64,000 nucleotides of DNA from Kiritimatiellia bacterium (GCA_028715905.1 JAQUQV010000003.1:10066-74065); one strand, 5' to 3'; positions 22,497-37,246 are shown, numbered from the stretch's first letter. The notes: a model not told the origin generated them from the letters alone. Made by a program: numbers and translations.

Positions 22497-23645
22497 CTAC
22501 GGCAAAAAGGCGCCTTTTTTGATTTTTACAGGCAAATATTTTTCCAGCACGTAATTGAGGCCGTGTTTGGCAAAGGCCTGCTGCTCAATGCGCACGCCCA
22601 TGGAAAGCATCTGCTCCAGCGCGGCCTGCCATTCCTTGTGGTGTTTAATGAAGGGATCGTTTTTCAGCGCGTCCCTGGCGCGTTTAATGTCGTTTTCCTC
22701 CAGCGGGTGGGTGGCGTCCTTGAGGTCAAAGTCAATGATGTCCTGCGGGGTGACGCCGAGATAGTGGACCTGCGGCACGCAGAAGAACTGGTTGATGTGC
22801 GCGGCCTGGCCCGAGCCGACCTTGAGCGTCCGGTAGATGTTGCAGTAGCCGTACGGGTCGCCGTCGGTGAATGCCAGCACCGGCAGGCGGCGGTCGTCGC
22901 AGAGGCGGCGGATGAACCGGCGGCAGGCGCGGGTCGGAACTCCGCTCATTGAAATCAGGATGCAGTTCGCCTTTTCATAGTAGCGGTGGTGCACCAGACG
23001 TTGAAAGAGCGAGGCAGTCTCAATTACCAGCACGAATTTCGCCTTTGTCTCAAAACGCAGGTGCTCAACCTGGGAGGGAATGCTCCATGCGCCGGTGCCG
23101 AGCCGTTCGCAGTTGATCCTGATTTCGTCCCGCGTGCCGGGATCAACATCAATGACCGTGAGCGGACCGGTAACTTCGCCGCCGCGCTCCTCGGGAATAT
23201 AACCGAGTTGTTCGCGGTTGACGGCGAGCATGGCTTCCATGTCGTCCAACAGCGAGTCGCTTTCCGGCTGTTCGTTGAACCGGCATTCGCCCCAGCTTTT
23301 GCTGTTGTAATAAATTTCGCGCTTCCCGGCGATGTCGTTCTTGTCCAGCAGGTCGTTCTTGGTGGTGGCCAGCAGGCGCATGGACTGGGCGAAAGTTTTG
23401 ACCGTGTTGTAGGAGAGCGTGCGCGTCGCCGTTTTGTTGAGGATTTCAAAATGGCCCTTGCGCGGGTCGTACTTGACGTTGCTCAGGGAGCGGATCGGGA
23501 AACGCATTTTTGGGCGGGTGTTTTTTTTGACAATATCCGCGTAAATATCGCCGGCCGTCCGCGTGATTTTAGCGGCGGCGTCTTTTTTGGAGACGATATT
23601 GTATTTTGCTGTGTTTAATTTTACGGTGTCTGACGTCTTTGCCAT
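22497..23645 (-). CDS. top6A: DNA topoisomerase VI subunit A (Spo11/Top6A family)
   Basis: CAP domain with catalytic-Tyr motif GKREIYY, Toprim Glu (VLVIETASLF) and DxD (FTDGDPYGY). GAGGAAAAAC ATG Shine-Dalgarno. Confidence 0.85.
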   Translation of the reverse strand: MAKTSDTVKLNTAKYNIVSKKDAAAKITRTAGDIYADIVKKNTRPKMRFPIRSLSNVKYDPRKGHFEILNKTATRTLSYNTVKTFAQSMRLLATTKNDLLDKNDIAGKREIYYNSKSWGECRFNEQPESDSLLDDMEAMLAVNREQLGYIPEERGGEVTGPLTVIDVDPGTRDEIRINCERLGTGAWSIPSQVEHLRFETKAKFVLVIETASLFQRLVHHRYYEKANCILISMSGVPTRACRRFIRRLCDDRRLPVLAFTDGDPYGYCNIYRTLKVGSGQAAHINQFFCVPQVHYLGVTPQDIIDFDLKDATHPLEENDIKRARDALKNDPFIKHHKEWQAALEQMLSMGVRIEQQAFAKHGLNYVLEKYLPVKIKKGAFLP

Positions 23646-23759
23646 GTTTTTCCTCAAGTGCTGAATCTTTCTGATTTTCGGATATTTCTCGCCTGCTCTC
23701 CCGGCCTCCCGGAGAATCGGGAAGCGCAAGGCGTTCGCTTTTCTGTGAGGGTCATTCTG

Positions 23760-25505
23760 CTATTGTTCCAGATGCGTCCTTTCCAGCATCTTTTGCAGTT
23801 TGTGCAACACGGCTTTTTCCTGCCGGTCGTCAAATTCCAGGATTTGTTTCAGACCCAGCGCCAGATGGGGCAGGTAGAGCTCAATGTAATTCCGCTTGCG
23901 CTCCAGTTCCGCCTGGCGCCGCCGCCGGCTCAAATAGACCGCCAGCCGCCGGCCGCATTCCTGAAGGGCAAAAACTATTTCGCGGATGATTTCCGGGTAA
24001 TGCGCGATGGCCTCCTTGCTTTCGCTGGTGAAGGGCACCCAAACGCTGGCGATATGGACCATGATCACCAGCGGTCCCAGCGGCAGAGAGCCGGAAGGCT
24101 GGGCGAGGTGATAGCTTTTCCAATTGATGGCGGAGACCGCCTTGGTGATGGCGCAGGCGCCGCCCATGTAAAGCATCGGAACCTTGTTGGCGAAACGCAG
24201 GACGCGGGCCGGCTCTTCCGCGCCGAGTCCCTGGGCGGCGTCCGGCTTGGCGTAGGCGATTCCCGCCTCAATCTGGAAGGGATTGCCGCGGTAGACCTCC
24301 GGACTGCGCGTGACGGACGTGTAGAAATCGGCCTTGATTTCCTTCTCCAGCCCGGCGATTATTTCCTTTTCGCCGATCGGCGAGAGGCAGTCGGTCGGCG
24401 GCCGCATCAACTTGGTTTCGCCGATGGCCTTGAAGAGCGCCTCGCTTTCGCGGTGCGCGATCTGGGCCGGCCGCTCCTTAGGGGCTAATCCGGCCCGCTC
24501 GCAGATTTCCTTCGCCACGCGGTCGCTGATCCGCGAGAAATCGTGCTGCAGGGCGGCCTTGAGGGATTTATGGGGGGTGTCTTTCAGCATCTGGATAAGC
24601 ATGCCCAGCTCAACGCCGTGGGGATGCGGCTTGATTTCAAAGGGCTGGACCGGGGTTTTGTGCGTGGCCCGCGCAAAGGTGGTCCACGGCGCCGTCCCTT
24701 TTTCCCCGGGAACGTCCTTTTCCTTTCCCGGCTCAGCCGCGCTGATGCGGTAATGCAGTTGAAGGTGGGGGTTGACGATGGCGCATTGTTTCAGGTATTC
24801 ATCCACGGAAAGTTTGCCGCGCGCGTAGGCCGCCTCCATTTCAATGGCCACGCAGGTGCCGTGCCTGGCGGTTGCCGCCCCGCCCGTTTCGCCGCCGGCG
24901 AATTCCGGCGTCCATTCCAGTTCCTGGTCCTTGAGGATGACCGGCTTGTTCTGGCGCGTGTCAATCTGCACTTCAAGGTGGTGGCCGGTTTTTGAATTTT
25001 TTGTCCGGGACTTTATGACGGTCGGCTTGCCGGTGGTCAACTGCCCGTACATTCCGGCGGCGCTGATGCCGATGCCCTGCTGGCCGCGCGACATGCGCAG
25101 GCGGTGGAACTTTGAGCCGTAAAGCAGCTTGGCGAATATTTTCGGGATCTGGTTGCGCAGGATGCCCGGTCCATTGTCGGTAACCGATACCACGAAACGT
25201 TTGGCGGCGGTCTGCCGGATTTCAACGCCGATTTCCGGCAGGATGCCGGCTTCGTCGCAGGCGTCCAGGGAATTGTCAACCGCTTCCTTGACGGCGGTCA
25301 GGAGCGCCTTGCGCGGGTTGTCAAAACCCAGCAGGTGGCGGTTTTTGAGAAAAAATTCGGAGACCGATATTTCCCGCTGGCTGGCGGCCATGCTTTCGGC
25401 GGTGGCGCCGGAGTCCGCCGGCGGCCGGGCACGGCCGGATTGGCGGCCGGCATTGTTTTTTACGTTTTTGCCGGGCGCGGTTTGCCTGAAAGTTTTTTTC
25501 CTCAT
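23760..25505 (-). CDS. top6B: DNA topoisomerase VI subunit B (GHKL ATPase plus transducer)
   Basis: Bergerat-fold motifs (EAVDNSLDA.., DNGPGI, GxxGxG-like QGIGISAAGMYG). N-terminus ..EISVSEFF.. is typical of Top6B. The start may instead be the Met at 25391. Confidence 0.85.
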   Translation of the reverse strand: MRKKTFRQTAPGKNVKNNAGRQSGRARPPADSGATAESMAASQREISVSEFFLKNRHLLGFDNPRKALLTAVKEAVDNSLDACDEAGILPEIGVEIRQTAAKRFVVSVTDNGPGILRNQIPKIFAKLLYGSKFHRLRMSRGQQGIGISAAGMYGQLTTGKPTVIKSRTKNSKTGHHLEVQIDTRQNKPVILKDQELEWTPEFAGGETGGAATARHGTCVAIEMEAAYARGKLSVDEYLKQCAIVNPHLQLHYRISAAEPGKEKDVPGEKGTAPWTTFARATHKTPVQPFEIKPHPHGVELGMLIQMLKDTPHKSLKAALQHDFSRISDRVAKEICERAGLAPKERPAQIAHRESEALFKAIGETKLMRPPTDCLSPIGEKEIIAGLEKEIKADFYTSVTRSPEVYRGNPFQIEAGIAYAKPDAAQGLGAEEPARVLRFANKVPMLYMGGACAITKAVSAINWKSYHLAQPSGSLPLGPLVIMVHIASVWVPFTSESKEAIAHYPEIIREIVFALQECGRRLAVYLSRRRRQAELERKRNYIELYLPHLALGLKQILEFDDRQEKAVLHKLQKMLERTHLEQ

Positions 25506-25592
25506 AAGCGGAAGGAAACGATAAGGAAAATACGCAAAAAAACAATTAAAAATTGACAATAAAACGCGAATATATAACAATAATTTTTTACC

Positions 25593-25650
25593 AGCGGGCA
25601 ATGCCCGCTTGAGTGAAAGCGAATATTGCACGATTCTCTTGCAATATTCA
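25593..25650 (-). repeat. repeat family C, copy 2 (reverse orientation on the plus strand; faces top6B)
   Basis: GCGGGCAATGCCCGC..linker..GAATATTGCACGATTCTCTTGCAATATTC; the linker is the reverse complement of the copy 1 linker. Confidence 0.5.
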
Positions 25651-25659
25651 GGCATTAAC

Positions 25660-25881
25660 ATGTTTATTTCCGGATTAACTTCGGTAACATTCCGCAAACT
25701 TTCCTGCCGGAAAGTGGCCGCCCTGGTGAAAAAAGCCGGTTTGGCCGCCATTGAGTGGGGCGGGGAAGTGCACGTGCCGCACGGCGATATTGCCCGCGGG
25801 AAGTGTTTTTTATTGCCTTTCGGGTCTTGTTTGGCGATATTACTTCCCTGTGTTGCCTCAAGGCCGCCCGGAAAGGGATAG
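25660..25881 (+). pseudogene. probable N-terminal remnant (about 48 aa) of a xylose-isomerase-like TIM-barrel (sugar phosphate isomerase/epimerase) gene
   Basis: MFISGLTSVTFRKLSCRKVAALVKKAGLAAIEWGGEVHVP resembles the N-terminus of that family (compare the intact paralog at 29071-29868). Similarity stops after about 50 aa, and the ORF ends 3 nt before lpxA. Confidence 0.3.
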
Positions 25882-26782: not shown

Positions 26783-27556
26783 CTAAAAATTGATTGTTGA
26801 AGCTTTCTTTTTGTACTGGCCGGGGGTTTGGCCGGTGTGCTTTTTAAAGAAGCGATAGAAACTCTCAACGTTTTCAAATCCGCATTGATAACTGATTTCC
26901 TTGATATTGCCGCTCCCCTTTACCAGCAGCTGCTTGCTTTCGGTCAGGCGGAACGCATTCAAATAAGCGTGCGGACTGTTTGCCAGATGTTTTTTGAACA
27001 GCAGGAAGAGATGCGCTTCGCTTACGCCTGAATATTCCGCGACCTCCGCCACGGAGATGGCCGCGTGATAGTTGTTTCTGATATATTCCAGGGCTTTGTT
27101 CAGGGCGGGAGGCAGCCGGTTGTCCGTTTCCGTTTCATGGCTGGACAAGGCCTCCCACCGGAGGCGGGAATAGGCATAAATGCCCAACAGTTTGTGCGGG
27201 ACGGTTTTTCCGAGAAAAGCCCTGAGTATGGTGAAGGCGAATTTCCTTACTTCGTAATTGTCGGACCAATATGAACATCTTGCCGTATGCCGCTGCCCGG
27301 TATTGCCGGTTTTGAAAAGCAGCGCCAGGCATTGGTAAGGAAACTCCGGGTTGTTGTCATAGACCGAGAAGTCGCCGGGAATATGCCAGAACATATGGCC
27401 GCATCCGTGTGCCGCGCGGCCGGCGCCTTCGCCAAAATACACTTCCCCGTCAGTCAGCAGTTCAATGTACTCATGCTTTACCGGAATCTTTACCGGCGTG
27501 ATGCGCTTATGATGCGGCGCTTTATAATAAAACACCCGTTTGAGAATAATATCCAT
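26783..27556 (-). CDS. AraC family transcriptional regulator (cupin sensor plus HTH)
   Basis: C-terminal AraC HTH (..ISYQCGFENVESFYRFFKKHTGQTPGQY..). Confidence 0.85.
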   Translation of the reverse strand: MDIILKRVFYYKAPHHKRITPVKIPVKHEYIELLTDGEVYFGEGAGRAAHGCGHMFWHIPGDFSVYDNNPEFPYQCLALLFKTGNTGQRHTARCSYWSDNYEVRKFAFTILRAFLGKTVPHKLLGIYAYSRLRWEALSSHETETDNRLPPALNKALEYIRNNYHAAISVAEVAEYSGVSEAHLFLLFKKHLANSPHAYLNAFRLTESKQLLVKGSGNIKEISYQCGFENVESFYRFFKKHTGQTPGQYKKKASTINF

Positions 27557-27786
27557 GCTCGTTGCCATCCCGTGTAAAATTCGCGGCTTAACGGCAACAA
27601 ATAATGGTTTTGTTCAATTATGTCAAGGCATAGGAATTTTCCGCCGGAGGCGGATCCGCCTACGGCGGAAAATCTTGCCGCAAAAAAGCACAAAATCGGG
27701 GTGGGCGCCGAACTTCTGTTCGGCGATTGCGCGCCGTGGCAGGCAGGAGCCGAACCCCTGTTCGGCGATGTATATTTTATTATCCG

Positions 27787-27870
27787 GAATCGCCGCATGG
27801 GGATGCGGCTACCGCGCCGCTCAAAAGTTGCTGTCTTTGGCGGGCCCAATCCGGGGCGGATATTCAGGGG
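27787..27870. repeat. repeat family B, copy 1 (GAATCGCCGCATGGGGATGCGG...CTTTGGCGG...ATTCAGGGG), immediately 3' of the Gfo/Idh/MocA gene
   Basis: Shares a 24 nt near-identical head, CTCAAA, GTTGC, CTTTGGCGG and an ATTCAGGGG tail with 37339-37411. Confidence 0.5.
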
Positions 27871-27917
27871 CGGCAAACGAATGAATTGAACGCAAGACAG
27901 GGCGGCGCGCGGGTTTT

Positions 27918-29012
27918 TTACTCGTCAAGCATGCCATGTTCCAATCCCAGGGGGAGCGGGACTGGCCGCGTGCAGGTGGTGGTCATTTTTACTTTCCTGC
28001 CCAGTTTGCTGGATTCGTCAAAAGCGAGCATAATTTCCAGAACATGGCTGGCGAGTTCGGCGTTTGCGCGGTGCTTGCGGCCGCTTTGCAGGGCATAAAC
28101 CATGTCGGCCGCGCCGATGCTGCGGGAGTTTTCAGCGTAAATGTGCGCAAGCGGCGCGCATTCAAAATCATGATATCCATTGCGAAAGATTCGCACGGGG
28201 CCGCCGAAGGTGTTTGGATTCGGAACCTGCAGGGTGCCTTCGGAACCGTAAAGCTCAATTGGCCAGTGGCTGTGTTTGTGAACTTCAAAGCTGGTGATAA
28301 CCGTTATGATTGCGCCGCAATGGAACTCAACCATGCCGCTCAGGTGCGTCGTAACGTTCACCGGATAGGTGCGGGGAACCGTATCCGGACCGCCGCGGCG
28401 GGTTTCAGTTCCCTTGCAGGTTACGGCCGTAACGCTTGCCGCCGGTCCCAGCAGGTTGACCAGCGCGGTGATATAGTAGGGCCCCAGGTCCAGCATCGGT
28501 CCGGCGCCAATATCGTAGAAGAAAGGCGCCTGCGGCCATTTTTCAGGCCCCCGGCCCATGACAATGGCGGTTCCGGCAATGGGTTTGCCAATCCAGCCGT
28601 CATCAAGCATCTTGCGGGCGGTTTGCTGTCCGCCGCCGAGAAAGGTGTCCGGCGCGCAGCCGACCATGAGTCCTTTTGCGTTTGCCGTTTTAGTGATTTG
28701 GCATGCCTCTTCAAAACTGACGCCCAGCGGCTTTTCCGAATAGCAGTGCTTTCCGGCGTTGAGCGCGGCCATAGTGATTTCATAGTGGGCCTTGGGAGGA
28801 GTCAGGTTAATGACGATCTCAATCCCGGGCGCCGCGAGCAGTTCGGCCGTGGTCATGCTCCGCAGGTTATAGAGCTCGCTCTTGGCTTTGGCGCGCGCCG
28901 GCAGTTGGTCGGCGCAGGCAACCGTTTCAAGGATTTCAAAAGTCTGCGCAGCCTTGAAATAGGTGTCGCTGATCATGCCGCAGCCAATAATGCCGATTTT
29001 TGACTTTTTCAT
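27918..29012 (-). CDS. Gfo/Idh/MocA family oxidoreductase
   Basis: N-terminal Rossmann MKKSKIGIIGCGMIS, GFO_IDH_MocA C-terminal domain. Confidence 0.88.
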   Translation of the reverse strand: MKKSKIGIIGCGMISDTYFKAAQTFEILETVACADQLPARAKAKSELYNLRSMTTAELLAAPGIEIVINLTPPKAHYEITMAALNAGKHCYSEKPLGVSFEEACQITKTANAKGLMVGCAPDTFLGGGQQTARKMLDDGWIGKPIAGTAIVMGRGPEKWPQAPFFYDIGAGPMLDLGPYYITALVNLLGPAASVTAVTCKGTETRRGGPDTVPRTYPVNVTTHLSGMVEFHCGAIITVITSFEVHKHSHWPIELYGSEGTLQVPNPNTFGGPVRIFRNGYHDFECAPLAHIYAENSRSIGAADMVYALQSGRKHRANAELASHVLEIMLAFDESSKLGRKVKMTTTCTRPVPLPLGLEHGMLDE

Positions 29013-29070
29013 TTCAATAATCCTTGTTGTTCGCGGATTGCGTCGGCGGCGGAAACCGCCGCGGGGTGCT

Positions 29071-29868
29071 TCATTTATTGCCCGCGGCCAGTCCGTTTTG
29101 CGTCATGTATTTATAGCTCATTTCAATGGCCCGGAACATATCCATGTTGCAGTAGTCCAGCTCCACGACGATGCTGTTGACCTGTTCCGGCAGGTTGGCG
29201 ATCAGCGCTTTGATATCCAGCTGGCCGCTGCCGAGCGGACACAGGTCCAGTTTGCGGTCCAGGATGCCCCGGGTAACTTTGAACTTCCGCCGGGGCTGTT
29301 TCAGGATTCCGTCCTTGACGTGGATCAGGATGGTGCGCTTCGCAAATATTTTCAGTATTTCCACGGCATCCTCTTTGCCCAAATTGGTGGACCAGAAAGA
29401 GTCAATTTCAAATTTAACCTTCGGGCAAAGCTCGGCGTAGATCTGGTATTTGAGCCTGCCATTCAGGCGTTGAAATTCAAAAGCATGATTATGCTGGAAG
29501 AGGGTAAAATTGTTTTTGGCGAGGATGGTCTGCATCGTGTTGGTGGTCTCGGCGGTGCGTTTGATCGCGTCCATGTCCTTGAATTGATCCGGGCCGTAGC
29601 CGCAGACAATCTTGTCAAGGCCGAGGATGTCGGCGATTTCCATCACTTCGCCGAGATTGCGCTCATTGGCCCAGGGGGAGTGGGAGGAATACAGTTCCAG
29701 CCCCAGATCGGCGATGATCTTCTTGAATTCCCCGGGGCGCAGGTTCCAGAACCCGGCGGGCTCCACCCCTTTGTAACCGATTCGGGCGACTTTTTTGAGC
29801 ACGGAAACAAAATTCTTTTGAGCGGCTTCCCGCAAGGAATACAATTGAACCGACAATGGCTTTAACAT
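29071..29868 (-). CDS. sugar phosphate isomerase/epimerase (xylose isomerase-like TIM barrel)
   Basis: AP_endonuc_2 family pattern. Trimmed to MLKPLSVQLYSL with GGAAGGAG Shine-Dalgarno. Confidence 0.8.
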   Translation of the reverse strand: MLKPLSVQLYSLREAAQKNFVSVLKKVARIGYKGVEPAGFWNLRPGEFKKIIADLGLELYSSHSPWANERNLGEVMEIADILGLDKIVCGYGPDQFKDMDAIKRTAETTNTMQTILAKNNFTLFQHNHAFEFQRLNGRLKYQIYAELCPKVKFEIDSFWSTNLGKEDAVEILKIFAKRTILIHVKDGILKQPRRKFKVTRGILDRKLDLCPLGSGQLDIKALIANLPEQVNSIVVELDYCNMDMFRAIEMSYKYMTQNGLAAGNK

Positions 29869-30158
29869 GTTTTTGCTCCTTCCCGTGATGTTATTCTTGA
29901 GCGGCCTTGATTTCTGCATGGCAACGTGCGCAATCCGCGCTATGTGAAAAATTATTAAAGAAGCCCGGGAAAAAGGCAATTGACAAAAAGTATTATTTGT
30001 TGACGAGAAGCATGATCATGATTTGTTCCGGCCCCATCCCGGTTTCGGCGTAAAAATATGGTTGATATCGGCGAAAGATAATGTAAATTCAGGCACAACC
30101 GCATCGGCGGGCGGAATATAATGAAAGAACAGCGCTTTTTTTAAGGAGGAGGGCGGAT

Positions 30159-32258
30159 ATGGAATCAAGAGAAGACGGCAATGTGCTGAAACCGGCGGTT
30201 GCGCGGGTTATGCGGTTGAGCATTGGTTTTTTGGCATTGATTTCCTGTTTTATTTTGGCGGAGTCTTGCGCCGATGGCGCCCCTATATGTAATCTGGATA
30301 ACGCCGATAAATTCAAGATTCCGGAGCGCTGGGCGGCGCGTCCGGTTGGAGCGCGCGATTTTTACATTGAGAGTCCGTTGGAAATCCAGAATCAAGAGGT
30401 CCGGGTCGGGAATGAAACGCGGCTTTTCGGGGAAGTGCCCTGCTGGAAACAGGGGGTTTTACGCGTGTCCTATGGCGCGATGAGAGACCCGGACGGCACG
30501 TATTATAAAGAAGTATTGAGCCAAAGGGATAATCCGATCATCATATACGGACGTCCGAAGACCATGGATACCAATGCGCTGATGCGGATCAAGCGGGATT
30601 TCGGGAAACGATTTCTCGGGGTTTACGCGCTTGAGTGGTATAGTCATCCGTTCCTTGGCAACAGGGGGGTGGAAGGGGTGAAAACGGTATGCGAAGAATA
30701 CAAGATTCCACTGGTGCGGAACCGGGACGAGGCCTTTCATCTCTTTGAATTGCATTTTAAAAACACGTGGGGCGGACTGCAGGCGGCCGGCATTCCCGTC
30801 TATGCCGGCCAGGCCACGTTTATGAATCACTGGGAATGCCGGATGGGTGTGAGCATAACCGGGGAGGAAATCGGCGGCAACGAGCGTTGCACGCCTATGC
30901 AGCTGGCGTTTTCGCGCGGCGCCAGCCGGCAATATGACGTGCCCTGGGTGGTGTATATTGCGAGTTGGGGCGGGGGAGTGGTGGGCGATGCGGAGACCCG
31001 TTATTTATTTGTGCGGCCGGATGAACGGCGGCTGAACTCCACCAGATCCGGAGGCACCTATGACGTCGGTCCTTACAGCGGCACTTCCTGGTCGTTGATG
31101 AAGCGCATGTTATACGCATCGTACATGGCGGGAACAGGTGTCGCGAGAAAAGAAGGCGATAAGAATGCTTTTTTCGCGAACTTTGACGCGGATACCGTGG
31201 ATTCAATTCCGCCCTGCACACTCGCGCTGCAGGATCGGAAGACATATCTCTCGCCGCTGGGCCGGATATATGAAAGGTTTTATGACACGGTGACTGCCGG
31301 GCATGAGCGGGGGATTCCATACGCGCCGATCGCCCTGGTGTTTGACAAGAACCACGGCTGTATCCTGGAATATAGCCAGATCCATACCATATCTTGCGTC
31401 CCGTACGGGCCTGGCGAATGGCAGACGCGGGCGATAATCAACACTGTGTTTCCGTGGGAAGAAAGGCGCAAGGAGACCAAGTCGTTTGAATCCAATACGC
31501 TGGTGACCGGTCCTTTCGGGGATATATTTGACGTGTTGACCAGCGACGCCGGGGGCGAGGTGTTAAGCAGTTACCGGTGTCTTGCTTTGGTTGGGAATGT
31601 GCGGATGAATGAGGGGCTGGAAGACCGGATAAAAGAGCATGTCAAGGGCGGCGGAGTGGTCTTTATGGCAGTCGCGCAGATGACGCCGGCATTATGGGAG
31701 GCGGCCGGGCTGGAAGACGGCCGGGCGGACCTGCAGGCAAAGGTTTGGCGGGTGGAGGGGGAAGACAAGCGGGTGGAGGAAGACCAAAGCTGCACCTATC
31801 GGAAAGCAGGGTTAAAAGGCGCGGAGGCGCTGATCAGGACCGAAAACGGCGACCCGCTGGTGACCATTAAACGGGAAGGCAAAGGGGCGATCGTGGTTGG
31901 CCTTGCGGGCTGGATGACGATTGACGGGCCGAAGCCGAACCGGATGTTGAAAGTTTATTCGGAAGTGATGGGGAGGATAGCGGATGAATTGTCGCCCGTG
32001 AAAGTGAGCGGGAATGTGGAAAAACTTTATAACCGGAACGGCAAGGGATGGGTGGTAACCTTGATCAATAATGACGGCATTTATAAATATCCGGGCAAGA
32101 AGGAAGTGTTAAAGCCGGAAGAAGCGGTTGAGGTCAGTCTGGAACCGCGGTTTGCCCATGGCGCCGTCCGCGAATGGGTCACGGGGGCGGAGATGAAGGA
32201 ATTGAAATTGACGGTCCCGCCGGGGGACGTGCGGATTGTTGAAATTGAGGAAAAATGA
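30159..32258 (+). CDS. hypothetical secreted protein (699 aa), possibly a glycan-active enzyme of unassigned family
   Basis: AAGGAGG Shine-Dalgarno 9 nt upstream, N-terminal signal-anchor MRLSIGFLALISCFILAES. No family recognised. Confidence 0.55.
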   Translation: MESREDGNVLKPAVARVMRLSIGFLALISCFILAESCADGAPICNLDNADKFKIPERWAARPVGARDFYIESPLEIQNQEVRVGNETRLFGEVPCWKQGVLRVSYGAMRDPDGTYYKEVLSQRDNPIIIYGRPKTMDTNALMRIKRDFGKRFLGVYALEWYSHPFLGNRGVEGVKTVCEEYKIPLVRNRDEAFHLFELHFKNTWGGLQAAGIPVYAGQATFMNHWECRMGVSITGEEIGGNERCTPMQLAFSRGASRQYDVPWVVYIASWGGGVVGDAETRYLFVRPDERRLNSTRSGGTYDVGPYSGTSWSLMKRMLYASYMAGTGVARKEGDKNAFFANFDADTVDSIPPCTLALQDRKTYLSPLGRIYERFYDTVTAGHERGIPYAPIALVFDKNHGCILEYSQIHTISCVPYGPGEWQTRAIINTVFPWEERRKETKSFESNTLVTGPFGDIFDVLTSDAGGEVLSSYRCLALVGNVRMNEGLEDRIKEHVKGGGVVFMAVAQMTPALWEAAGLEDGRADLQAKVWRVEGEDKRVEEDQSCTYRKAGLKGAEALIRTENGDPLVTIKREGKGAIVVGLAGWMTIDGPKPNRMLKVYSEVMGRIADELSPVKVSGNVEKLYNRNGKGWVVTLINNDGIYKYPGKKEVLKPEEAVEVSLEPRFAHGAVREWVTGAEMKELKLTVPPGDVRIVEIEEK

Positions 32259-32282
32259 GCCGGGAGGGGGAATATTTAACCG

Positions 32283-33398
32283 ATGAAAAAAATAATATTG
32301 CTGGCGATAGGCATAGCGGCCGGGGCCGCGGCGGGAAGCGCGGAGCAAGCGGCCGGGAAGGTTATTCTGGACGAAATGTTTGACCGTCCGGAAATCGGCG
32401 CGAACTGGGTGGTAAAGGAAGGATATTGGACGATCAAAAACGGCAGTTTATGCAACACGGACGGCGGGGTGATCCTGGCGGCCAAACCGATGGAAGGCGA
32501 TTTTGCGCTGGAATGCGAGGTTCGGGTGGCAAAATGGAACGCGCAATATCCATGGGTTGATATTATCGTCGGTTATGATGATCCGGAGAATTACATGTCT
32601 TTAATGTTCACGCCCGGAGAACGTTATTATTATTTGAGGGCGACGGCTGATGCCGCGAATCAGATGTCAGGCGGCAATATTCCATTTGATCAAGACGTGT
32701 TTCACAAGGTCAGGCTGGAAAGCCGCGGGCTGATGGTAAAGTTTTTTTGGGACGGCGTCTATATTCGGCAGCACCGGTTCAGCCAGATTCTGCCGGCCAT
32801 GGTTGGCTTTATGGGGAACAAGTCCGGCGCGGAATATGAAATCAGGGCGGTAAGGATAAGCGAGATTCAGGAGAGCGGGCGGCAGGTCGGTGAGTTGACG
32901 GTCAATGAAATCATGCGCGCGCAAGCATGGGAAGATGCCGGGAATAACAACGTGAAACGGGGCCGGGGCTGCGAAGAGAAGGATAATGCGGCCTGGCTGG
33001 AATATGATTTCAAGGAAACCGGCGAATACGCGGGGGTCTTCGTGCGGATGCCGGCGCGTATCGGCAATTCCGAAAAGGTTTTAATGGAAATAGCCGGGGA
33101 CGGGTCCGCGAACAAAGCGTATCTGATCGCGCGGGACGCCGGAGATGAGGAACACTTAATCGGCACGGTCAGTCTGAACTGGGACGGGTGGCGTAAAATA
33201 TCGTTGAATTACGAAATATTTTTGAAGCCTCCGGGGCGGGAGATATATGCGACCCATTGGGGCGGAGACGGGAACCAGACGATTGATTTTCCGATCAAGC
33301 AGATTGAAGTGGGCGTGGTCCGGTCCGATAAAGCCGTGAAACGCGCGGGTAGAATCGGCGTGCGCAACATCCGGTTTATGAAGGATGAAGGGGGATAG
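32283..33398 (+). CDS. secreted DUF1080 (3-keto-disaccharide-hydrolase-like jelly-roll) protein with a C-terminal CBM-like domain
   Basis: Signal peptide; DUF1080 signature region (VILDEMFDRPEIGANWVVKEGYWTIKNGSL). C-terminal roughly 110 aa are homologous to the C-terminus of the next protein. Confidence 0.72.
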   Translation: MKKIILLAIGIAAGAAAGSAEQAAGKVILDEMFDRPEIGANWVVKEGYWTIKNGSLCNTDGGVILAAKPMEGDFALECEVRVAKWNAQYPWVDIIVGYDDPENYMSLMFTPGERYYYLRATADAANQMSGGNIPFDQDVFHKVRLESRGLMVKFFWDGVYIRQHRFSQILPAMVGFMGNKSGAEYEIRAVRISEIQESGRQVGELTVNEIMRAQAWEDAGNNNVKRGRGCEEKDNAAWLEYDFKETGEYAGVFVRMPARIGNSEKVLMEIAGDGSANKAYLIARDAGDEEHLIGTVSLNWDGWRKISLNYEIFLKPPGREIYATHWGGDGNQTIDFPIKQIEVGVVRSDKAVKRAGRIGVRNIRFMKDEGG

Positions 33399-33405
33399 TT
33401 ATCAT

Positions 33406-34575
33406 ATGACATTGACGCGCATGTTCTTGTTGATCGCGCCGGCGGCAGGCTTGATGCTGGTTGGATGTCATTTGATTGACGCTGCCGGCCGGAAAACCGG
33501 AGGCGAAAATCAAAAAACTGACGGCGCGCCGCCGAATTTCCTGCGGAACGGGAATTTTGAAAAAACAGACCGGCTCACCGGAAAGCCGGCGGACTGGTCT
33601 TGTCACGAGAAAATGGCTGGGAGCAATGTTATTGAGTGGGGGGTTACCCCGGAAAATGGCCGCGCGGGGCGGAATTGCCTGCGTTTAAGCTCGGAGAGGG
33701 AGGGATATCACGGCGGTATTTTTCAAAAAGTGGCGCTGGAACCCGATATGACTTATAAATTCAGCGCGTGGATCAAGGCGGACGTCGCGACCAATGACGG
33801 CAAGGTGGTATGCTTGTATTATGATGGCTATAATGAAGAGGATGGCAAAAAACAATGGTGGGGCGGGTCGTTAAAAACTCTGCGGCAGAGCGCGGACTGG
33901 CAATACGTGGAAAAGGTGATTGTTGCGACATCGCGCACGCCGGAAACGGTGAATTTTTATCCGTGCTTGTTTTACGGCGCGACGCGCGTATGGCTGGATG
34001 ATGTGCGGCTGGTTGAGGAGGGGTATGCCGGCCAGCCGGGGAGGAGCGTATTTCAGATCAAGGCGCCCGCGGCGGACTGGGAGATTTTTTGCGACCAGGG
34101 GGAAAGGTATGGGGTTAAAACGCGGGCGGCGCGGGTGAAACGGGAACAGGTGGAAGGCCGGGATTGCCTGCGGCTTGATTATCGCTTTGAGACGGCCGGA
34201 CATGATTGCGTGATGATACGCGCGGCGGCGAATGCCGGCGAAAAGGCCGGCCTGGCGGCCGTAACAATGTACGGGGACGGATCAGGGCATGAATTGTTTC
34301 TTATCCTGGAGGATAACGGCGGAGAGAATCATTATTTGCCGATTACCCCGGTTTATTGGAAAGGCTGGCGGACGGTTTATCGTGCCATGGATAAACTGTA
34401 TCGGCCGCCCAGGAAGCATGAAATACATGCGACGTGTTGGGGCGGGGACAGCAACCAGGTTGTTGATTTGCCGCTCAAGCGGATTACGGTCGGAATGAAC
34501 GACTGGCCCGATGAATACCGCGGGCGTGGGCGGGTCTGGCTGGAAAAGGCGGTTTTTTTAGACCGTTCCTTTTAA
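33406..34575 (+). CDS. lipoprotein with CBM4/9-like domain (NGNFE..) and the same C-terminal domain as the preceding protein
   Basis: Lipobox LMLVGC, NGNFEKTD CBM_4_9-like start. The C-terminus ..IHATCWGGDSNQVVDLPLKRITVG.. is paralogous to ..IYATHWGGDGNQTIDFPIKQIEVG.. Confidence 0.65.
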   Translation: MTLTRMFLLIAPAAGLMLVGCHLIDAAGRKTGGENQKTDGAPPNFLRNGNFEKTDRLTGKPADWSCHEKMAGSNVIEWGVTPENGRAGRNCLRLSSEREGYHGGIFQKVALEPDMTYKFSAWIKADVATNDGKVVCLYYDGYNEEDGKKQWWGGSLKTLRQSADWQYVEKVIVATSRTPETVNFYPCLFYGATRVWLDDVRLVEEGYAGQPGRSVFQIKAPAADWEIFCDQGERYGVKTRAARVKREQVEGRDCLRLDYRFETAGHDCVMIRAAANAGEKAGLAAVTMYGDGSGHELFLILEDNGGENHYLPITPVYWKGWRTVYRAMDKLYRPPRKHEIHATCWGGDSNQVVDLPLKRITVGMNDWPDEYRGRGRVWLEKAVFLDRSF

Positions 34576-34670
34576 ACATGATACACCTTTGCGTAGAATT
34601 TTAAATAAGGCCGGCGAATCGCCACCCGGGAAAGTTTTTAATGGCGGCGCTGCCGCCTTGGATTGGAATG
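34571..34670 (+). repeat. repeat family A, copy 3, facing the downstream plus-strand gene
   Basis: TTTAAACATGATACACCTTTGCGTAGAATTTTAAATAAGGCCGGCGAATCGCC...GGCGGCGCTGCCGCC. Ends about 20 nt before AGGAGG ... ATG at 34691. Confidence 0.6.
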
Positions 34671-34690
34671 AGAGCATGAGCAGGAGGTGC

Positions 34691-35137
34691 ATGATGAGAC
34701 GAATATTGAGCGGATTAGTCGCTGTCCTGGCGATCTCGGGATCATATGCGGATGACCTGGTTTTGGATGGCGGCGTAATTTATACCAATGACGCCGGGAC
34801 GTCCAATTACGTTTGCTTTGTGGTCGGGAGCAACACGGCCGATAACGGATATATCCTGACCAACGGCGCGGTCTTGAATACGACCACGGCGGTTGTGGGT
34901 TATGCCGGATCTGCCACCAACAATTTTGTGCTGGTGGACGGGGCAACATGGCATAATGCCACCAACGTGTACATGGGCTACAGCGGCAGCGCCGGATTTA
35001 ACCGCATCATCATCACCAACGGCGGTCTCTGGTCGCTTGGCAAAGACGCCATTGTTTTTGTCGGCAAAGCATCAAATCCCACCCGTATAAGCGAGGGTAA
35101 ATACGTGTATTTTCTTGCCTCCCCGGTAAAATTTTGA
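34691..35137 (+). CDS. secreted autotransporter-associated beta-strand-repeat (PATR-like) protein, short and possibly truncated
   Basis: Signal peptide MMRRILSGLVAVLAISGSYA followed by G/N/T-rich beta-helix repeats; only 148 aa, whereas this class is usually very large. Confidence 0.5.
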   Translation: MMRRILSGLVAVLAISGSYADDLVLDGGVIYTNDAGTSNYVCFVVGSNTADNGYILTNGAVLNTTTAVVGYAGSATNNFVLVDGATWHNATNVYMGYSGSAGFNRIIITNGGLWSLGKDAIVFVGKASNPTRISEGKYVYFLASPVKF

Positions 35138-35149
35138 TAGTAAAAAAAC

Positions 35150-36160
35150 ATGAATGCATCCGGCAACGAAATAAACCTCAAGGGGCGCAGTCTTCTGAAA
35201 CTTGTGGATTTGAGCGATGAGGAGTTGCTTTACCTCATTGACCTGGCCGGCCGCCTCAAGGAAATGAAAAAGCGCCGCGCCCACGGCAATTCCCTTTTCC
35301 GCCGGAACATTGCCTTGATTTTTGAAAAACCTTCAACCCGCACCCGTTCGGCCTGCACGGTTGCGGCGGTGGACGAGGGCGCGAGCGTGGAATATATGGA
35401 CATGAAAGACCTGCATCTGGGTAAAAAGGAATCCATCAAGGATTCGGCGCGCGTGCTCGGCCGGATGTTTGACGGCATAATGTTTCGCGGTTTCAGCCAG
35501 GCGACCATGGAGACGCTGGCCAAATACGCCGGCATTCCGGTCTGGAACGGCTTGACCGACGAAAGCCATCCCACCCAGACCCTGGCCGATCTCATGACGA
35601 TCCGTGAATGTTTTAAAGGTTTGCGCGGCTTGAAGGTGGTTTATGTCGGCGATGGCCGCAACAACGTGTGTCTTTCGCTGATGGTGGGCTGTGCCAAGAC
35701 CGGCATCAATTTCGTTGACTGCACTCCGCGGGAACTTATGCCCGACGCGGCGGTTCTCGCGCAGGTTTCCGCGCTGGCGCGCGCGCACGGCTGCACGCTT
35801 GAAATCAGCCACGATCTCAACGCGGCCGTCCGGAATGCCCAGGTGATTTACACCGATGTCTGGATTTCCATGGGCGAGGAAAAGAAATTTGAGGAGCGCC
35901 ACCGTCTCCTGAAGCCCTATCAGGTCAGCATGGACCTCATGCGTAAAACCGGCAAATTGGAAAACGGCGGGGTGATTTTCCTGCATTGCCTGCCGGCTTT
36001 CCACAACCATGAGACGGAAGCGACCCGCGCGACAGGCGCCCTGGAAGTTACCGACGAGGTCTTTGAAGCGCCATTTTCAAGGGTTTTTGACCAGGCCGAA
36101 AACCGCCTGCATACTATCAAGGCCATCATGGTTGCGACATTGGCCGGAGGGGGGATATAA
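35150..36160 (+). CDS. argF: ornithine carbamoyltransferase
   Basis: STRTR carbamoyl-phosphate motif, HCLPA ornithine motif, 336 aa. Confidence 0.88.
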   Translation: MNASGNEINLKGRSLLKLVDLSDEELLYLIDLAGRLKEMKKRRAHGNSLFRRNIALIFEKPSTRTRSACTVAAVDEGASVEYMDMKDLHLGKKESIKDSARVLGRMFDGIMFRGFSQATMETLAKYAGIPVWNGLTDESHPTQTLADLMTIRECFKGLRGLKVVYVGDGRNNVCLSLMVGCAKTGINFVDCTPRELMPDAAVLAQVSALARAHGCTLEISHDLNAAVRNAQVIYTDVWISMGEEKKFEERHRLLKPYQVSMDLMRKTGKLENGGVIFLHCLPAFHNHETEATRATGALEVTDEVFEAPFSRVFDQAENRLHTIKAIMVATLAGGGI

Positions 36161-36163
36161 GCC

Positions 36164-37246
36164 GTGAATGCCCCGCAAACTGTTCTGAGGGAGTTGGCGT
36201 GGGGCGAGTTTCAGAAGCTTGATTTGAAGCAAAAGGCGGACTGTTTCAACCTTGACGGACAGCCTTATCACGTTCTGGTCGCCCAGCAGTTTGACCGGCG
36301 GCTTCTTGAGGAACTGGGCGACCTGGCCACCAATATTCGTTATATCGCCAAAACCAAGTCCGGCATGGATTTTCTGCACGCGTTGTTATCCCATAAAACC
36401 GCCATGCTTTATTTCACCCAGCCGAGCACCCGCACTTTTCTTTCGTTTCATTCCGCCTGCCAGATTCTGGGCATGCGCACGGTTGAAGTGCGCGATACGG
36501 CCACTTCCAGCGAAATGAAGGGCGAAACCCAGGAAGATTCGGTGCGGACTTTCAGTTCTTTTTCCGATGCCATCATCATGCGCAGCGCCATTCCCGGTCT
36601 GGCCGAGAAAATGGCCTGGGTTCTTTCCAACACCGAGCGCCCGGTACCGATTCTCAACGCCGGGTCCGGAAAGGACCAGCACCCCACTCAGGCCCTGCTT
36701 GATATCTATACCTTGCGTCGCAGTTTTGAAAAAAGAGGCGGCATAGACCGCAAGAAAATAGTTTTTGTGGGCGATCTGGCGCGCGGCCGGACGGTGCGCT
36801 CGCTCGCCTATCTCCTCAGCAATTACGCCGGCGTCCGGCAGTATTTTATCGCTCCGCCGCAGCTCCAGATTGGCCGGGACATCCTGGAAATCCTGGGCCG
36901 GGCCGGGGTTGATTACGAGCTGGATTCCGATTTTGAAAAGTATATTCCCGAGGCCGACGCGGTCTACATGACGCGCATCCAGGACGAGTGGGATGAGAAA
37001 AAAGGCCAGAGCGAGAAAATCAAAGCCGCAAAATTTCATTTCACGGCCGGCCATCTGAAAAAACTGTCGGCGCAGGCGGTTATTATGCATCCCCTCCCGC
37101 GCCGCGGGGAAATCGCCGTTGAAGTGGACAGCGATCCGCGCGCCGTCTACTGGCGTCAGGTGCGCAACGGCATGTGGATCAGGGTCGCCCTCCTTGCCAG
37201 TATTTTCGGGTGCGGCCCGGCGATCAGCGGTTTTCACGGCGGATAG
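36164..37246 (+). CDS. aspartate carbamoyltransferase catalytic-chain-like transcarbamylase
   Basis: STRTF and HPLPR motifs characteristic of ATCase; about 40 aa N-terminal extension. Exact substrate is uncertain. Confidence 0.72.
   Translation: MNAPQTVLRELAWGEFQKLDLKQKADCFNLDGQPYHVLVAQQFDRRLLEELGDLATNIRYIAKTKSGMDFLHALLSHKTAMLYFTQPSTRTFLSFHSACQILGMRTVEVRDTATSSEMKGETQEDSVRTFSSFSDAIIMRSAIPGLAEKMAWVLSNTERPVPILNAGSGKDQHPTQALLDIYTLRRSFEKRGGIDRKKIVFVGDLARGRTVRSLAYLLSNYAGVRQYFIAPPQLQIGRDILEILGRAGVDYELDSDFEKYIPEADAVYMTRIQDEWDEKKGQSEKIKAAKFHFTAGHLKKLSAQAVIMHPLPRRGEIAVEVDSDPRAVYWRQVRNGMWIRVALLASIFGCGPAISGFHGG

Follow-up and report, generated by a model that had tools for sequence, protein, structure and literature searches.

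Six genes at positions 26783–34575 of a stretch of Kiritimatiellia DNA (GCA_028715905.1 JAQUQV010000003.1:10066-74065; the whole 64,000 nucleotides analysed are called the window below) appear to form a polysaccharide-utilisation-type locus, a reading to which a probability of about 0.6 can be given. The plus strand carries an exported cassette of three proteins, P699, P5 and P6, while the minus strand carries a xylose-isomerase-like TIM-barrel protein (TIM), a Gfo/Idh/MocA oxidoreductase (Gfo) and an AraC regulator, and the families that make up the locus would be uncharacterised ones of known kinds. All six open reading frames (ORFs) proposed by the initial annotation were recovered, under locus tags PHP98_015xx of the metagenome-assembled genome (MAG). 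The conserved core of the locus is an exported enzyme resembling glycoside hydrolase (GH) family 42 together with β-sandwich proteins that share one domain, as is seen from the conservation of this gene pair.

In the proposed mechanism, P699 would cleave a glycosidic bond of a glycan, while P5 and P6, whose shared domain is the conserved partner of P699-type enzymes, would probably attach to that glycan at the cell envelope and display or retain it for the enzyme. The imported product would then probably be processed in the cytoplasm by Gfo and by TIM, a putative Mn/Co-dependent eliminase of the AtOGE/AL1 kind; most likely, Gfo would oxidise it to a keto-sugar and TIM would then carry out a β-elimination. 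The AraC regulator probably controls the divergent promoters. The link of the Gfo/TIM pair to the P699 cassette is tentative.

P699 (30159..32258, plus strand, 699 aa) is an exported protein and a predicted glycoside hydrolase of an uncharacterised family. The initial annotation had left it without a family, which holds for Pfam and NCBIfam, where a weak match to DUF7408 was all that was found and where P699 does not belong to GH42 (PF02449, PF08532); a sequence search of the PDB also returned no match. Its fold, by contrast with that annotation, is recognisable. An AlphaFold2 (AF2) model built from a 30-sequence alignment (pLDDT 89, pTM 0.90) matched GH42 (4oif), a GH35-like glucosyltransferase (7vl3) and the GH164 β-mannosidase 6t7g in Foldseek, at E values of about 1e-17. 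In this model, P699 has the three-domain GH42/GH164/GH35-like architecture of a TIM barrel, an α/β 'trimerisation' domain and a β-sandwich; moreover, the profile of the P699 family weakly matches the trimerisation (middle) domains of GH42 enzymes (E 0.005–0.4). E159, H224, E237, Y266 and E332 do not vary among 30 relatives. H224 and Y266 fall between E159 and E332, an order typical of clan GH-A, and the distance of 173 residues between the two glutamates is similar to the spacing of the GH42 catalytic pair. The acid/base is probably E159 and the nucleophile probably E332, and P699 would most likely hydrolyse a glycosidic bond, judging from the modelled fold. The hydrophobic N-terminus (helix 13–35) is consistent with export, and GGAGG stands 8 nt ahead of the ATG. 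A paralog of P699, P0021, is encoded in the same MAG. In the acidobacterial branch of the family (L023–L084, Acidobacteriota/Pyrinomonadaceae), the proteins reach about 850–950 aa and have a conserved N-terminal extension, which may replace a separate partner protein.

The two genes that follow P699 on the plus strand encode P5 (32283..33398, 371 aa), a secreted protein of two β-sandwich domains with a Sec signal peptide at residues 1–21, and P6 (33385..34575, 396 aa), a lipoprotein. Both end in a copy of the same domain, named here after its HWGGDxNQ motif, which occupies residues 232–368 in P5 (32976..33386) and residues 257–392 in P6 (34153..34560). P5 239–366 and P6 264–392 share 34% identity (BLASTP E 2e-20, over about 130 aa), and the domain is real, far beyond chance. 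The C-terminal domain common to the two proteins was thus rightly noticed in the initial annotation, and its motif (ATHWGGDxNQ..D.P.K.I.VG) is present; its length of about 110 aa has to be revised to about 130–140 aa. When a HMMER profile made from the two copies was run over 1.84 billion cluster representatives, 161 proteins matched at E≤1e-3 and 73 at E≤1e-10. Among the matches listed, 148 proteins were sorted by architecture: the domain stands alone behind a signal peptide in 37, closes a protein of 300–480 aa in 40, and occurs in one to four copies in multi-domain proteins in 60. When nine domain proteins longer than 480 aa were compared with Pfam, several had weak GH5, GH10, GH39, GH42 or Glyco_hydro_cc barrels, CBM9, CBM11 and GH2_N (CBM, carbohydrate-binding module). 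A word-indexed search with the domain profile returned unnamed stand-alone proteins only, none of them with a precomputed Pfam domain.

The shared domain was described at first as unassignable; it is indeed unannotated and behaves as a module, but it can be placed. Pfam matches of family members at E≤1 were to FlaA (PF04620) in 19 of 40, to CIA30 in 6 of 40 and to CBM_11 in 4 of 40, and in remoter members this region scores above the FlaA cut-off, with 45–75 bits (for example, 74.8). The family profile also reached spirochete FlaA chains in the PDB (E 0.015–0.1). The copies in the window score lower against PF04620, with 21.2 bits for P6 (E 2.5e-4) and 12.3–12.9 bits for P5 at a cut-off of 25. 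Because the P5 and P6 copies lie below the FlaA cut-off while family members match FlaA, CIA30 and CBM_11, the domain is read, from its sequence, not as a new fold but as a branch of the FlaA/CBM11/CIA30 (galactose-binding-like) sandwich group that has diverged and carries no annotation. It is here that the conserved polar residues of P5 and its relatives are concentrated (D273, S275, D285, E289, H291, W326, D329, N331, Q332 and D335). FlaA proteins are Ca2+-binding β-sandwiches, and the cluster of Asp, Glu, His, Trp and Asn is probably a Ca2+ and sugar site, a prediction from residue conservation. One further protein, P0221, resembled a fusion of P699 with the shared domain; its junction truncates both parts and may be chimeric, and it was not used as evidence. 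The presence of the shared domain in CBM9-bearing relatives of P699 was also considered and rejected, since the domain hidden Markov model (HMM) gave no match in them.

A different role for the domain, as a protein–protein docking or anchoring module that tethers P5 and P6 to P699, or P699 to the envelope via P6 in the manner of a FlaA sheath, is quite unlikely. It would fit the fact that the only named sequence relatives are FlaA sheath proteins, which assemble via β-sandwich interfaces and bind Ca2+, the location of the most conserved P5-family residues within the domain, and the strict pairing of its gene with one enzyme architecture, including a true GH42 enzyme as described below. In larger proteins, however, one to four copies of the domain are fused to diverse GH-A-type barrels, CBM9 and CBM11, which is how carbohydrate-binding modules typically behave; matches of domain members to CBM_11 and CIA30 point in the same direction.

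The association of the domain with P699 is evident from the gene neighbourhoods. In a scan that took one genome per species, at least 531 loci with P699 relatives were found, in Planctomycetota, Verrucomicrobiota, Lentisphaerota, Armatimonadia, Acidobacteriota, Hydrogenedentota and Omnitrophota. The ORFs of 84 P699-seeded loci and of domain-seeded loci were then covered by an HMM scan. In 19 of the 84 P699-seeded loci, including 16 of the 22 closest, an ORF with the domain is found 0–180 bp from the P699 relative and on its strand; loci with this pair span Planctomycetota, Verrucomicrobiia, Lentisphaeria/Victivallales and Armatimonadia. Starting from the domain gives a similar picture: all three domain-seeded look-ups had a P699 relative nearby (two abutting, one about 1 kb off across one gene), and 15 of 24 domain-seeded metagenome loci had one adjoining, most of the exceptions being very short contigs, on which a neighbour could be missed. 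In locus L107 (5719–8426), where no P699 relative is found, a shared-domain protein stands directly upstream of a canonical GH42 β-galactosidase (PF02449, E 2e-93), and this true GH42 neighbour ties the shared domain independently to the GH42-type architecture.

P5 takes part in the same association. Its relatives lie immediately beside P699 relatives in L001–L006, L008, L009 and L015, and orthologs of P5, P6 and P699 occur together in L001 and L002 (45%, 48% and 60% identity, respectively) in a gene order that differs from that of the window. In L001 (706–5693), a gene for an MTTB-family methyltransferase and a URO-D-like gene were also seen upstream of the ortholog cassette, which might hint at demethylation of methylated sugars. 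A bolder form of the proposal, in which P699 would found a new clan GH-A-like GH family and the HWGGDxNQ domain a new CBM family, the two being an obligate two-gene unit across the phyla of the Planctomycetota–Verrucomicrobiota–Chlamydiota (PVC) group and Armatimonadota, and in which Gfo and TIM would finish the degradation by oxidative, non-Koshland cleavage of the imported product, is put at a little under even odds.

P5 and P6 are proposed to be non-catalytic proteins of two sandwiches each, CBM66-like plus the shared domain in P5 and CBM4_9 plus the shared domain in P6. The N-terminal domain of P5 (32358..32867, about residues 26–195) is a compact ConA-like sandwich of about 170 aa of the CBM66/DUF1080-superfamily kind, which in the AF2 model (pLDDT 90.6) has a Foldseek TM of 0.8 to CBM66; only core or structural residues are conserved in it across the P5 family. 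P5 has no family in Pfam or NCBIfam, no match in the PDB by sequence and, in a word-indexed search, no match other than itself. P6 was taken for a CBM4/9 lipoprotein from the start, and the evidence bears this out, as it matches CBM_4_9 (PF02018) over residues 51–192 (nt 33535–33960) with 39 bits at a cut-off of 25.9 and has an LVGC lipobox behind a likely start at Met8 (33406).

P5 had also been called a DUF1080 protein in the initial annotation, and this had to be given up. Neither the whole protein nor its N-terminal domain alone matches PF06439 or any other Pfam family even at E≤10; what it has is a generic ConA-like sandwich, the likeness to DUF1080 is one of fold, and CBM66 fits better. 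PF06439 is touched by 5 of 28 P5 relatives at E≤1 (best E 1.3e-7), and a remote relation of P5 to the PF06439 superfamily is plausible on these sequence matches.

The assignment of all three minus-strand genes was confirmed by Pfam. Gfo (27918..29012, 364 aa), an NAD-dependent sugar oxidoreductase, matches PF01408 (E 1.2e-18) and PF22725 (E 7e-18); by inspection it has no signal peptide, its Rossmann GxGxxG motif starting at residue 9. Its best solved relatives are DgpA, a C-glycoside 3-oxidoreductase (7xr9, E 6.5e-18), and DgpA1 (9m3d), over residues 1–184 only. In NCBIfam, levoglucosan dehydrogenase (5e-14) and IolG (8e-14) match about equally, both far under their cut-offs. The BT_2158 and BT_2159 models of NCBIfam also stay far under their cut-offs for the window proteins; Gfo scores 22.6 bits (E 3.5e-5) with the BT_2158 family NF058561, whose cut-off is 750, and it has neither the membership nor the TAT export signal of an AL/BT-type glycoside 3-dehydrogenase.

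TIM (29071..29868, 265 aa from ATG; the ORF extends to 29979 from TTG) matches PF01261 (E 1.5e-9), has no signal peptide by inspection and finds IolE as its only match in NCBIfam. Six solved relatives were found in all, namely AtOGE (8bvk), which is the Agrobacterium O-glycoside β-eliminase (PMC10628242), 8tct, 8tcs and 8tcd, and the structural-genomics entries 3l23 and 3obe. In the alignment to 8bvk, TIM keeps His132, His134, Glu161, Asp163 and His189 of AtOGE, and it keeps the His, His, Asp, Trp, His and Glu residues of AL1/BT1; the motifs H-N-H, E-x-D-x-x-W, I-H-x-K-D and V-E are retained against both 8bvk and 8tcs/8tcd. TIM thus has every element that characterises a 3-keto-glycoside 1,2-lyase: a metal site of His, Asp and His, a His and a Trp for the substrate, and a Glu or His for catalysis. 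We infer that 8tcd, 8tcs and 8tct are AL1/BT1-type lyases, because the adjacent code 8tdi is P2B11 glucuronide-3-dehydrogenase and the residue numbering matches; P2B11 is a hit described in the AL/BT preprint (bioRxiv 10.1101/2024.03.25.586180). The identity of 8TCD, 8TCS and 8TCT was not confirmed in the literature, and NCBIfam calls their fragments only IolE-like. TIM is a candidate 3-keto-glycoside β-eliminase, and the Gfo/TIM pair resembles 3-keto-glycoside enzymes by these residue patterns and matches.

The AraC/XylS-family regulator (26783..27568, 261 aa), the last gene of the minus-strand group, matches HTH_18 (PF12833) with 80 bits at a cut-off of 33.6, shows the C-terminal double helix-turn-helix (HTH), and matches HTH_AraC with 45 bits. 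It aligns over 243 aa with the AraC protein of the cassette in L086 (24% identity, E 7e-12), and further P699 cassettes with an AraC gene close by are those of L003, L010, L017, L058 and L068. In four Victivallales loci (L017, L068, L086 and L087), genes for Gfo, TIM, AraC, a pseudopilin-like protein (N_methyl, prepilin-type), a stand-alone domain protein and a P699 relative are collinear on one strand. These loci suggest that a Gfo/TIM/AraC trio has been recruited to the cassette repeatedly, with non-orthologous genes.

An oxidoreductase, a sugar-isomerase-like barrel and a DUF1080 protein are the enzyme trio of 3-keto-glycoside routes, and this was the pathway first seen in the locus: Gfo would oxidise C3, the TIM lyase and a DUF1080-type P5 would cleave and hydrate the product, and P699 and P6 would be accessories. 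The first two members retain their likeness, as Gfo is closest to DgpA and TIM, with all active-site residues kept, to AtOGE and AL1/BT1-type lyases, and the contact of some P5 relatives with PF06439 could be taken as a trace of the third. The trio as a whole is unsupported because P5 fails it in family, compartment and synteny. Besides lacking a PF06439 match, P5 has an N-terminal module that fits the non-catalytic CBM66 best and conserves structural residues alone. Inspection of the sequences shows a Sec signal in P5 and a lipobox in P6 but neither of these in Gfo and TIM, so that oxidase, lyase and P5 would not share a compartment; the oxidase, lyase and DUF1080 protein of the AL/BT system are all marked for export. 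Synteny connects the relatives of P5 with P699 rather than with Gfo or TIM, and P699 is thus the conserved neighbour of P5 in place of the partners first assigned to it. The low score of Gfo for the BT_2158 family also speaks against a single oxidative pathway, which is very improbable here, and the exported cassette with a cytoplasmic pair is preferred.

Several observations weigh against this preferred reading as well. The Foldseek matches of P699 to GH42 and GH164 have a TM of only about 0.5 and an identity of about 10%. In clan GH-A, the acid/base Glu lies on strand 4 and usually follows an Asn, and the nucleophile Glu lies on strand 7; in P699, E159, E237 and E332 each stand at the end of a predicted strand, and the Asn is absent, Leu158 preceding E159. 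The P5 and P6 copies of the shared domain both fail the FlaA family threshold (≥25 bits), leaving the FlaA link sub-threshold, and Foldseek matches of the whole P5 model are dominated by the N-terminal domain rather than by the shared one. FlaA is a protein-binding sheath component, and homology to it alone is no proof of sugar binding. No neighbouring domain gene is found in the acidobacterial P699 branch (about 55 loci), and the locus itself has no transporter gene. As regards the minus-strand group, the window-type TIM occurs in none of the 84 P699 loci and the Gfo type gives weak family-level matches only, while Gfo and TIM of the Victivallales loci belong to other subfamilies than those of the window, that TIM being AsbF-like.

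These last points bear on a further explanation, in which Gfo, TIM and AraC would be mere neighbours of the P699 cassette and serve an unrelated cytoplasmic pathway of keto-sugar or inositol type. Pairs of this kind abound in PVC genomes, and this explanation would agree with the absence of the window-type pair from the P699 loci, with the nearly equal IolG and levoglucosan dehydrogenase matches of Gfo and the sole IolE match of TIM, and with the restriction of the DgpA similarity to the N-terminal half of Gfo. It is nevertheless rather unlikely, considering the divergent arrangement of the two groups across a 290-bp spacer with AraC attached, and the collinearity of a Gfo/TIM/AraC group with the cassette in the four Victivallales loci, one of whose AraC proteins aligns with that of the window over its full length.

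The spacer between the minus- and plus-strand groups (29869..30158, 290 bp) contains promoter-like hexamers at 30062–30089 on the plus strand and at 30144–30115 and 29979–29951 on the minus strand; promoter and terminator scans gave no more matches than in shuffled sequence, and neither Rfam nor tRNA scans found anything in the window. A second spacer, of 350 bp between the Gfo stop and the AraC start, holds two structured elements (27636–27673 and 27704–27769). The first is a near-perfect palindrome of 19+19 nt, and the second consists of two 24-nt direct repeats, 42 nt apart, each a hairpin (GCCGAACnnCTGTTCGGC), a motif with no other occurrence in the window, where 0.13 matches are expected by chance. 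They might act as terminators or as binding sites for a regulator, or be a small repeat element.

The GC skew over P699, P5 and P6 (30001–34000) is 0.22–0.28, while nearly all the rest of the window stays at or below about 0.12, and the GC content there is slightly lower (0.53–0.55 vs. about 0.57); from both, the cassette may have been acquired horizontally. Directly after P6, a 182-aa ORF (34589–35137, plus strand) with an internal signal-peptide-like stretch (MRRILSGLVAVLAISGSYA) and Gly/Asn/Thr-rich repeats has no Pfam match, and could be a fourth exported operon member. The locus is flanked by housekeeping genes, namely topoisomerase VI A and B, LpxA and two carbamoyltransferases. The topoisomerase VI subunits lie just upstream (22497–25751, minus strand), A matching TP6A_N and Toprim (E 1.5e-56) and B the transducer domain (E 6.6e-58); this is a type IIB topoisomerase of archaeal/eukaryotic type, here in a Kiritimatiellia bacterium. 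The two adjoining carbamoyltransferase genes, of ornithine/aspartate type (OTCace_N and OTCace), follow the locus at 35150–37246 on the plus strand.

PVC bacteria (Kiritimatiellia, Planctomycetota, Verrucomicrobiota) degrade complex glycans with many unannotated genes. Defined here are a widespread GH42-like family and its dedicated partner domain, which has no database name, and the pair of genes is a concrete, testable target for CAZy-type discovery. In addition, the newly described 3-keto-glycoside pathway should not be extended to every ConA-like protein found near a Gfo/TIM pair, a tempting step that the present results show to be wrong.

Among known systems, the enzyme is best compared with GH42 and GH164 (Gan42B, 4oif, and Bs164, 6t7g), with which P699 shares the order of its three domains. 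It differs in lacking the Asn-Glu acid/base motif, and in being exported and accompanied by an obligate-looking neighbouring sandwich protein, whereas GH42 enzymes are usually cytoplasmic. P5 and P6 may be likened to the surface glycan-binding proteins (SGBPs) of Bacteroidota, as exported or lipid-anchored, putatively non-catalytic multi-sandwich proteins beside the glycosidase that they would serve; the locus differs in having no SusC/SusD pair, in its phylum and in its unrelated domain families. The N-terminal domain of P5 shares 14–16% sequence identity with CBM66, the levan-binding module of B. subtilis SacC (4b1m), and differs from the DUF1080/PF06439 superfamily in giving no PF06439 match. 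The shared domain has the central motif GDGS..L.v.l.D..GE.H....i.w.GW in common with FlaA, CBM11 and CIA30 and, like FlaA, is all-β (in the P5 model); it differs from FlaA in that only positions ~113–169 of the 230 in the PF04620 profile align with it, the HWGGDxNQxxDxP motif lying outside this part, and in a genomic setting of glycan degradation rather than flagella.

The AL/BT2156–2160 system offers the closest parallel to the minus-strand pair. Export signals have been reported for its oxidase, its lyase and its DUF1080 protein, and AL1, AL2 and AL3 all have them (bioRxiv 10.1101/2024.03.25.586180), whereas Gfo and TIM of the window have none, the locus contains no recognisable DUF1080 enzyme, and the pair and the rest of the locus are not conserved side by side. 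What the window has in common with this system and with AtOGE is a Gfo/Idh/MocA oxidoreductase gene adjoining that of a xylose-isomerase-like TIM barrel, and a barrel in which the metal site (His/Asp/His), a second His, a Trp and the Glu or His of catalysis are retained.

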